A DNA stretch of 64,000 nucleotides from Escherichia coli (lineage in GTDB: Bacteria; Pseudomonadota; Gammaproteobacteria; Enterobacterales; Enterobacteriaceae). The stretch's first letter is position 1; every line of letters starts with the position of its first letter. Positions 16,430-17,882 of this stretch are shown here, one piece after another. The notes below the pieces were generated by a model. That model saw nothing but the letters and a program-made list of their open reading frames with translations, was not told the origin of the DNA and ran no database searches. The DNA is taken from the NCBI RefSeq assembly GCF_003334405.1, contig NZ_QOWM01000006.1; one strand, given 5' to 3'. The position numbers and the translations under genes are program-made.

Positions 16430-17823
16430 GCGGTACCCTCACGACGTGGTGCGCGTTTGCGTGGACGACGAGTACGACGACGCGGTGACGGTTCTTCATC
16501 CAGCTCGTTGAGCATCCCTTTTTGGTCTGGTGGCGCGGAAACCTGGAACTCACCCCACCATTTCACCAGACGCTGCAGTTCAGCGTTACGCTCAACTTCA
16601 GCTCGCAAGGCCAACAGGTCATAAGCCGCACGGAACTTAGGATGCTCCAGCAGTTTCCATGCGCGTTTACCCTGACGACGGGACATACGCAACTGCAACT
16701 GCCAGATATCGCGGGTTAATGTCGTCAGACGTTTCGGGATTGCCAGTGAACGGCAGGCTTCGTCCAGCACGTCGTTCATCGCCAGCGCGAAAGCGTCGTG
16801 ATAGGTCAGGCCGCTTTCCTGGGCGATCTTCTGTGCCGTCTCCAGCAGTGGGTACCAGAACATGGCGGCAAACAGGAACGCCGGGTTCACGCGCATATCG
16901 TTATGGATACGCGTATCGGTATTCTTCAGCACCTGTTCAATGATCCGCTCCATCGGGCTGTCGCCATTTTCCGTGAAGTAGCGGGTAATGGTCGGGAACA
17001 GCGGCTGGAACAGATGATATTCACACAACAGCTTATAGGTTTCGTAACCGTAGCCCGCTTGTAGCAGTTTAAGCGATTCTTCAAACAGGCGTGCCGGTGG
17101 GATATCGTTCAGCAGGGTAGCGAGGCGAGGGATCGGTTCTGCGGTTTCCGGGCTGATGCGCATACCCAATTTGGCGGCAAAACGTACCGCGCGCAGCATA
17201 CGTACCGGATCTTCACGGTAGCGCGTTTCCGGGTTACCAATCAGACGGATAACGCCGTCCTTCAGATCCTTCATGCCGCCAACGTAATCACGGACGGTAA
17301 AATCCGCTACGCTGTAATACAGGCTGTTGATAGTGAAATCGCGGCGCTGGGCGTCTTCTTCGATGGAGCCGAAAATGTTGTCGCGCAGCAACATGCCGTT
17401 TTGCCCGCGTTGGGAGGTCGTGCGGTCGCTGACGTTACCTTCGTGGTGTCCACGGAAGGTCGCAACTTCGATAATCTCCGGGCCAAACATTACATGAGCC
17501 AGACGGAAACGGCGACCCACCAGGCGGCAGTTACGGAACAGTTTGCGCACCTGCTCAGGCGTGGCGTTAGTGGTTACGTCAAAATCTTTCGGCTTTTTGC
17601 CAAGTAACAGGTCGCGCACGCCGCCGCCAACCAGCCAGGCTTCGTATCCCGCTTTATTGAGCCTGTACATTACCTTCAGGGCATTTTCACTGATATCTTT
17701 GCGGGAAATAGCATGCTGCTCACGCGGGATCACCGTCACCTGTGGACGGGCGACTGCCTGTTCAGCCTCGCTTTCCTCGCGGCTTAGCACCTTGCGGCAA
17801 AAATTAGCGACTCGGGTAAAAAT
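16426..17823 (-). CDS. pcnB: poly(A) polymerase I
   Basis: Track ORF (UUG at 17844) trimmed to the AUU codon at 17821-17823, giving the 465-aa protein [13 protein letters not shown]...; nucleotidyltransferase motif [10 protein letters not shown]. Confidence 0.88.
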
Positions 17824-17882
17824 AGTACACCTCGGTAGTGTCAAACATCATTCAGGACAAAAAAATAGCGGCTAATCATAGC

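Follow-up and report, generated by a model that had tools for sequence, protein, structure and literature searches.

We found that pcnB, the gene for poly(A) polymerase I (PAP I), is translated from the AUU codon at positions 17823-17821 of the window, the 64,000-nt stretch of Escherichia coli DNA analyzed here, to give a protein of 465 amino acids, and that this weak near-cognate start keeps the protein scarce. We hold this conclusion with high confidence. The AUU start of pcnB is already known: it was shown in 2002, is curated in RefSeq and is no novelty. To the published start we add a conservation survey of broader scope, with 82 Enterobacterales genomes, and we quantify synonymous constraint. 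The position of the start, its Shine-Dalgarno sequence, their conservation and the lack of workable alternatives come from our own comparisons, and the use of AUU and the limitation that it imposes are taken from the literature.

The pcnB coding sequence lies on the minus strand at 16426..17823 (465 codons and a stop) according to the curated annotation and NCBIfam NF008634. Positions 16000-19000 of the window are identical to 157303-160303 of E. coli K-12 MG1655 (NC_000913.3), with window position 17823 corresponding to 159126. The curated K-12 gene (b0143; 157729..159126, 1398 nt, 465 codons) starts at ATT; it is the same locus with the same sequence, and nothing differs between the two. In a PGAP-annotated E. 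coli genome, the pcnB CDS starts at the same base. The product scores 997.1 bits against the PcnB equivalog NF008634 (cut-off 702), and its residues 1-464 align to profile positions 1-468 of 469, with the ATT-encoded residue at profile position 1. A sequence-only reading of this DNA had placed the start at this ATT (17821..17823, minus strand), a codon decoded as fMet, and both annotations as well as the conservation described below agree with it. Four PDB entries (3AQK, 3AQL, 3AQM and 3AQN) match PcnB, but their chains begin at residues 28-29, and the structures thus carry no information on the N-terminus.

Mechanical ORF listing gives a longer frame (16426..17844, minus strand), in which the ATT is codon 8. 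Read 5' to 3' on the minus strand, the region runs TGA TGT TTG ACA CTA CCG AGG TGT ACT ATT TTT ACC CGA GTC GCT AAT TTT TGC CGC AAG GTG. The TGA (17848..17850) is the first in-frame stop upstream, at -27, and bounds the frame; the TTG (17842..17844) sits two codons past it. The frame is over-extended to this TTG because the ORF lister accepts ATG, GTG and TTG alone, and TTG is the first such codon past the TGA. The earlier statement that the frame lacks an ATG or GTG near the N-terminus holds upstream of the ATT, where there is none. It fails downstream, where GTG occurs at codon 12 (Val12, 17788..17790) and at codon 29 (17737..17739), both on the minus strand. Two other canonical codons, the GTG within the Shine-Dalgarno sequence GAGGTG and an ATG-ATG at 17851-17846, were rejected as starts since they are out of frame. 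The ATG-ATG opens a mini-ORF of 15 codons and a TAA (17804-17851, minus strand) that overlaps the pcnB Shine-Dalgarno sequence and ATT; it has no Shine-Dalgarno sequence of its own, and, among the loci read, only those of Escherichia have the ATG-ATG.

We then compared 80 Enterobacteriaceae loci, taking one genome per species, with PcnB identities of 86-100%. The aligned pcnB start is ATT in all 80 loci, and in all of them it is preceded by GAGGTG (17828..17833 in the window, minus strand) and a 4-nt spacer, the bases of which vary. The anti-Shine-Dalgarno duplex before the ATT (-9.7 kcal/mol) is the sole strong site in 17900-17760, and the 20 nt before the TTG (0.1 kcal/mol) and before the GTG of codon 12 yield energies of about 0. 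The mean energies over the 80 loci are -9.6 kcal/mol before the ATT, +1.0 before codon 12 and -0.3 before codon 29, and a level of -6 kcal/mol is reached only by the ATT. Thus, throughout the 80 loci, a Shine-Dalgarno sequence at functional spacing is present for the AUU and for no other candidate start.

The onset of protein-coding conservation marks the same codon. Among 46 unique sequences, codons 2-13 contain seven variable columns, all of them synonymous, with no amino-acid change. In codons 2-9, this coding signature depends on only 5-7 variable sites, as the synonymous sites there are nearly frozen. On the other side of the ATT, the seven 'codons' preceding it vary at all three positions; translated, they would yield 27 distinct peptides, four of which contain stops. 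The distance from the -10 box of the promoter described below to the ATT ranges from 42 to 78 nt among the Enterobacteriaceae loci, in steps that are not multiples of 3. The leader therefore undergoes frame-breaking length changes and is not coding. Protein-coding conservation of pcnB starts at the in-frame AUU, and the sequence 5' of it is non-coding. Within the species, 5402 of 5425 E. coli genomes share an identical 90-nt sequence from -45 to +45.

These observations bear directly on the possibility that translation begins, in whole or in part, at the UUG upstream (17844-17842), which would yield a protein of 472 amino acids beginning with MTLPRCTIF. This UUG is the first canonical start codon of the ORF, it lies inside the likely transcript from the pB promoter, and one paper names 'UUG' as the pcnB initiation codon in its introduction, although its discussion gives AUU. 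However, the UUG has no Shine-Dalgarno sequence, the curated annotation rejects it, and the stretch between it and the ATT is not conserved as protein. The TTG at -21 is found in just 26 of the 80 species. In 43 of them, no ATG, GTG or TTG exists between the nearest upstream in-frame stop, which can be as near as -15, and the ATT; for this window the comparison leans on the relatives, as E. coli itself has the TTG. Initiation at the UUG is thus highly improbable. The claim of the sequence-only reading that the ORF track is over-extended here is borne out: the TTG is lost in 54 of the 80 species, and variation turns synonymous-only exactly at the ATT.

A start at the GUG of codon 12 (17790-17788) would yield a protein of 454 amino acids and would turn the conserved stretch upstream into a regulatory element of the 5'-UTR. 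This GTG is invariant in all 80 species, and the block 5' of it shows nucleotide conservation that extends to synonymous sites, a pattern that a non-coding element could also produce. However, codon 12 lacks a Shine-Dalgarno sequence in every locus; the only strong one lies 37 nt upstream of it, at a spacing that suits the ATT. Codons 2-11 vary at only a few sites, all of them synonymous third positions, relatives at 45-67% identity still carry the peptide 5' of codon 12 with amino-acid substitutions, and the NCBIfam equivalog profile begins at the ATT-encoded residue and not at Val12. We therefore regard initiation at codon 12 as very improbable, and retain the AUU as the start of pcnB.

The conservation of the initiation region goes beyond the protein sequence. 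In the block from the Shine-Dalgarno sequence to codon 9 (17797..17833, minus strand, 37 nt), which is near-invariant including its synonymous sites, synonymous entropy across the 80 species falls to 0.145-0.20, compared with 0.94 for the gene on average, which is the lowest level in pcnB (rank 1-2 of 421 windows). The first ten codons of the neighboring gluQ gene, used as a control, are barely constrained (0.95 against 1.16, rank 33 of 289). A conserved hairpin was rejected as the cause, since the leader and initiation region fold worse than shuffled sequences (z +1.12). No Rfam family matches within 17600-18000, and covariation is uninformative for the frozen block, as the block does not vary. 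The simplest reading is stabilizing selection on the initiation rate at a weak start. Alternatively, the block might be an undescribed cis-acting determinant, for example a sequence context that AUU decoding requires or a site bound by a trans-acting regulator, and non-AUG initiation of pcnB may reach distant gammaproteobacteria in which the starts are miscalled; we offer this combined proposal tentatively and consider it rather doubtful.

A second patch of low synonymous variation covers codons 33-48 (17680-17727, minus strand). Within it, CGC AAA GAT (17703-17695) shows no variation at all, and the ATC that follows (17694-17692) is kept in 76 of 78 unique sequences. The patch may correspond to pS1, an internal sigma-S promoter described in the literature.

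Another possibility is that an extra, shorter PAP I isoform is made beside the AUU product, from an internal start at the GTG of codon 29 or at the ATG of codon 52 (17670-17668), the latter on a transcript from pS1. Two bands reported on anti-PAP I Western blots leave room for a second, minor start, and the authors who described the active pS1 promoter propose a Shine-Dalgarno sequence and an AUG downstream of it. Codon 29 is ATG or GTG in 76 of the 80 species, and codons 33-48 form the constrained patch noted above. Against this, codon 29 has no Shine-Dalgarno sequence in any locus, is ATT or GTA in four of them, and varies in the manner of a hydrophobic position (M/V/I) rather than a start. 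Of 78 unique Enterobacteriaceae sequences, 23 have Met at codon 52 and 55 have Leu, which argues against a conserved short isoform, and pS1 is reported to be active only under unusual conditions. We consider an additional short isoform unlikely, though less so than either of the other alternative starts. Codon 29 is GTG in K-12 and ATG in 73 of the 80 species, and crystallized PAP I constructs begin at residues 28-29; gene callers limited to canonical starts likely pick this codon in other genera. The ATG of codon 52 was once proposed as the pcnB start itself and later as the start of the short isoform.

We also read the DNA of distant relatives, taken from a search of 50%-identity representatives. 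In L083, a reduced genome of 1.08 Mb (62% identity), GAGGTG-TCCT-ATT TTT ACC CGA is kept, and the NCBI gene call starts at the ATT. In L084, a 5-Mb genome (67% identity), GAGGTG-TACC-ATT is kept, but the called gene reaches too far, to a TTG upstream that has no Shine-Dalgarno sequence. The L084 gene (1201-2698) is also split into calls of 316 and 150 amino acids, through either a frameshift or a sequencing error. In L085 (55% identity), AGAGGA is followed after 7 nt by ATT ATT, and the called start is an ATG 27 codons upstream that has no Shine-Dalgarno sequence. L086 (54%) and L088 (47%) carry the conserved N-terminal peptide in frame 5' of the called start with no canonical start available; ATC or ATT codons are preceded by a purine-rich stretch that resembles a Shine-Dalgarno sequence but is weaker (-6.4 and -5.4 kcal/mol, respectively). 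The misplaced calls are thus of two kinds, over-extended in L084 and L085 (position 51) and truncated in L086 (601) and L088 (501). Judging from these sequences, the true pcnB starts in L084, L085, L086 and L088 are likely ATT or ATC. In L087 (48%), the called GTG lies within a Shine-Dalgarno-like TAGGTGA and is ambiguous, L090 and L091 have an ordinary ATG start, and the sequence of L089 ends 65 nt upstream of the gene call and is uninformative on the start. Some distant pcnB relatives thus probably start at ATC or ATT, with gene callers misplacing the start. These cases fit a statement credited to Binns & Masters, according to which AUU may be the start of many PAP I genes in proteobacteria.

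We then investigated the regions flanking the start and the end of pcnB. A consensus scan identified a sigma-70-like promoter at 17875..17903 (minus strand), with TTCTCA (17903-17898), a 17-nt spacer and TATGAT (17880-17875), lying across the end of gluQ. Seventy of the 80 loci carry the TATGATTAGCCGC motif, 42-78 nt from the ATT. A promoter of pcnB named pB is described in PMC2939334, and the site found here is probably this promoter. Synonymous constraint within gluQ is strongest in its last ~15 codons, where the -35 element lies, as would fit a pcnB promoter located inside the 3' end of gluQ. The start of gluQ itself (18779-18809, minus strand) differs between records: the gene is 927 nt long in the MG1655 record (ATG at 18809) and 897 nt in the PGAP record, which starts 30 nt downstream, and 59 of 68 related loci have ATG at the position of the shorter start. 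At the other end of pcnB, its stop codon and the start of folK overlap as ATGA (16426-16429, minus strand), pcnB ending at 16426 and folK beginning at 16429. This overlap suggests translational coupling of the two genes, so the weak pcnB start may influence folK output too.

How the AUU start limits PAP I can be outlined as follows. The strong, well-spaced Shine-Dalgarno sequence (GAGGUG and 4 nt) in the unstructured, U-rich leader places the 30S subunit on the AUU. As a near-cognate codon, AUU pairs imperfectly with the initiator tRNA and would be discriminated against by IF3, so that initiation proceeds at only a few percent of that at AUG. The pcnB mRNA is made, yet PAP I stays scarce, and this scarcity protects the cell from the toxic polyadenylation of tRNAs by excess enzyme. 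By analogy with infC, we infer that IF3 discrimination against AUU may set the PAP I level. The literature gives PAP I at ~30-50 molecules per cell and describes its overproduction as toxic via tRNA polyadenylation. In reporters, AUU initiation amounts to 1-2% of AUG, and mRNAs with an AUU start are described as poor competitors, more so at reduced temperature, when nutrients are limiting or in the presence of ppGpp. Later papers credit the AUU start of pcnB and its translational limitation to Binns & Masters (2002, Mol Microbiol 44:1287), and the earlier suggestion that a weak AUU start keeps PAP I low accords with them. The pcnB ribosome-binding site is described as 'poor' in some papers; in contrast, the Shine-Dalgarno sequence is strong by our measure, and it thus looks as if the start codon itself is the main limiting feature. 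A literature search for statements on pcnB from ribosome profiling, initiation mapping or N-terminal proteomics found none.

The closest parallel is infC, which encodes IF3 and is the only other confirmed AUU-initiated gene of E. coli. The weak near-cognate start of infC is conserved across bacteria as AUU or AUC, and distant pcnB relatives seem to alternate between ATT and ATC. The two genes differ in that feedback by its own product has been demonstrated for infC, whereas the sensitivity of pcnB to IF3 is proposed by analogy. Unlike infC, pcnB is non-essential and has a canonical ATG start in some lineages (L090 and L091). A further parallel is ebpA of Enterococcus faecalis. According to PMC4447247, a rare ATT start attenuates its expression and the annotated start was wrongly placed elsewhere, as with pcnB. 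However, ebpA is an unrelated gene in an unrelated organism, and the annotation is truncated there, whereas the pcnB ORF track is over-extended here.

One of two confirmed AUU-initiated genes of E. coli, pcnB is of practical value as a calibration case. Mechanical ORF tracks and gene callers limited to ATG, GTG and TTG mis-set its start. The true start can nevertheless be found from sequence comparison, with no experiment, by a simple test that combines an invariant Shine-Dalgarno sequence, the point at which variation becomes synonymous-only, and the stops and indels that relatives have upstream. For the cell, the weak start is part of the mechanism that holds a toxic RNA-tailing enzyme at about 30-50 molecules.
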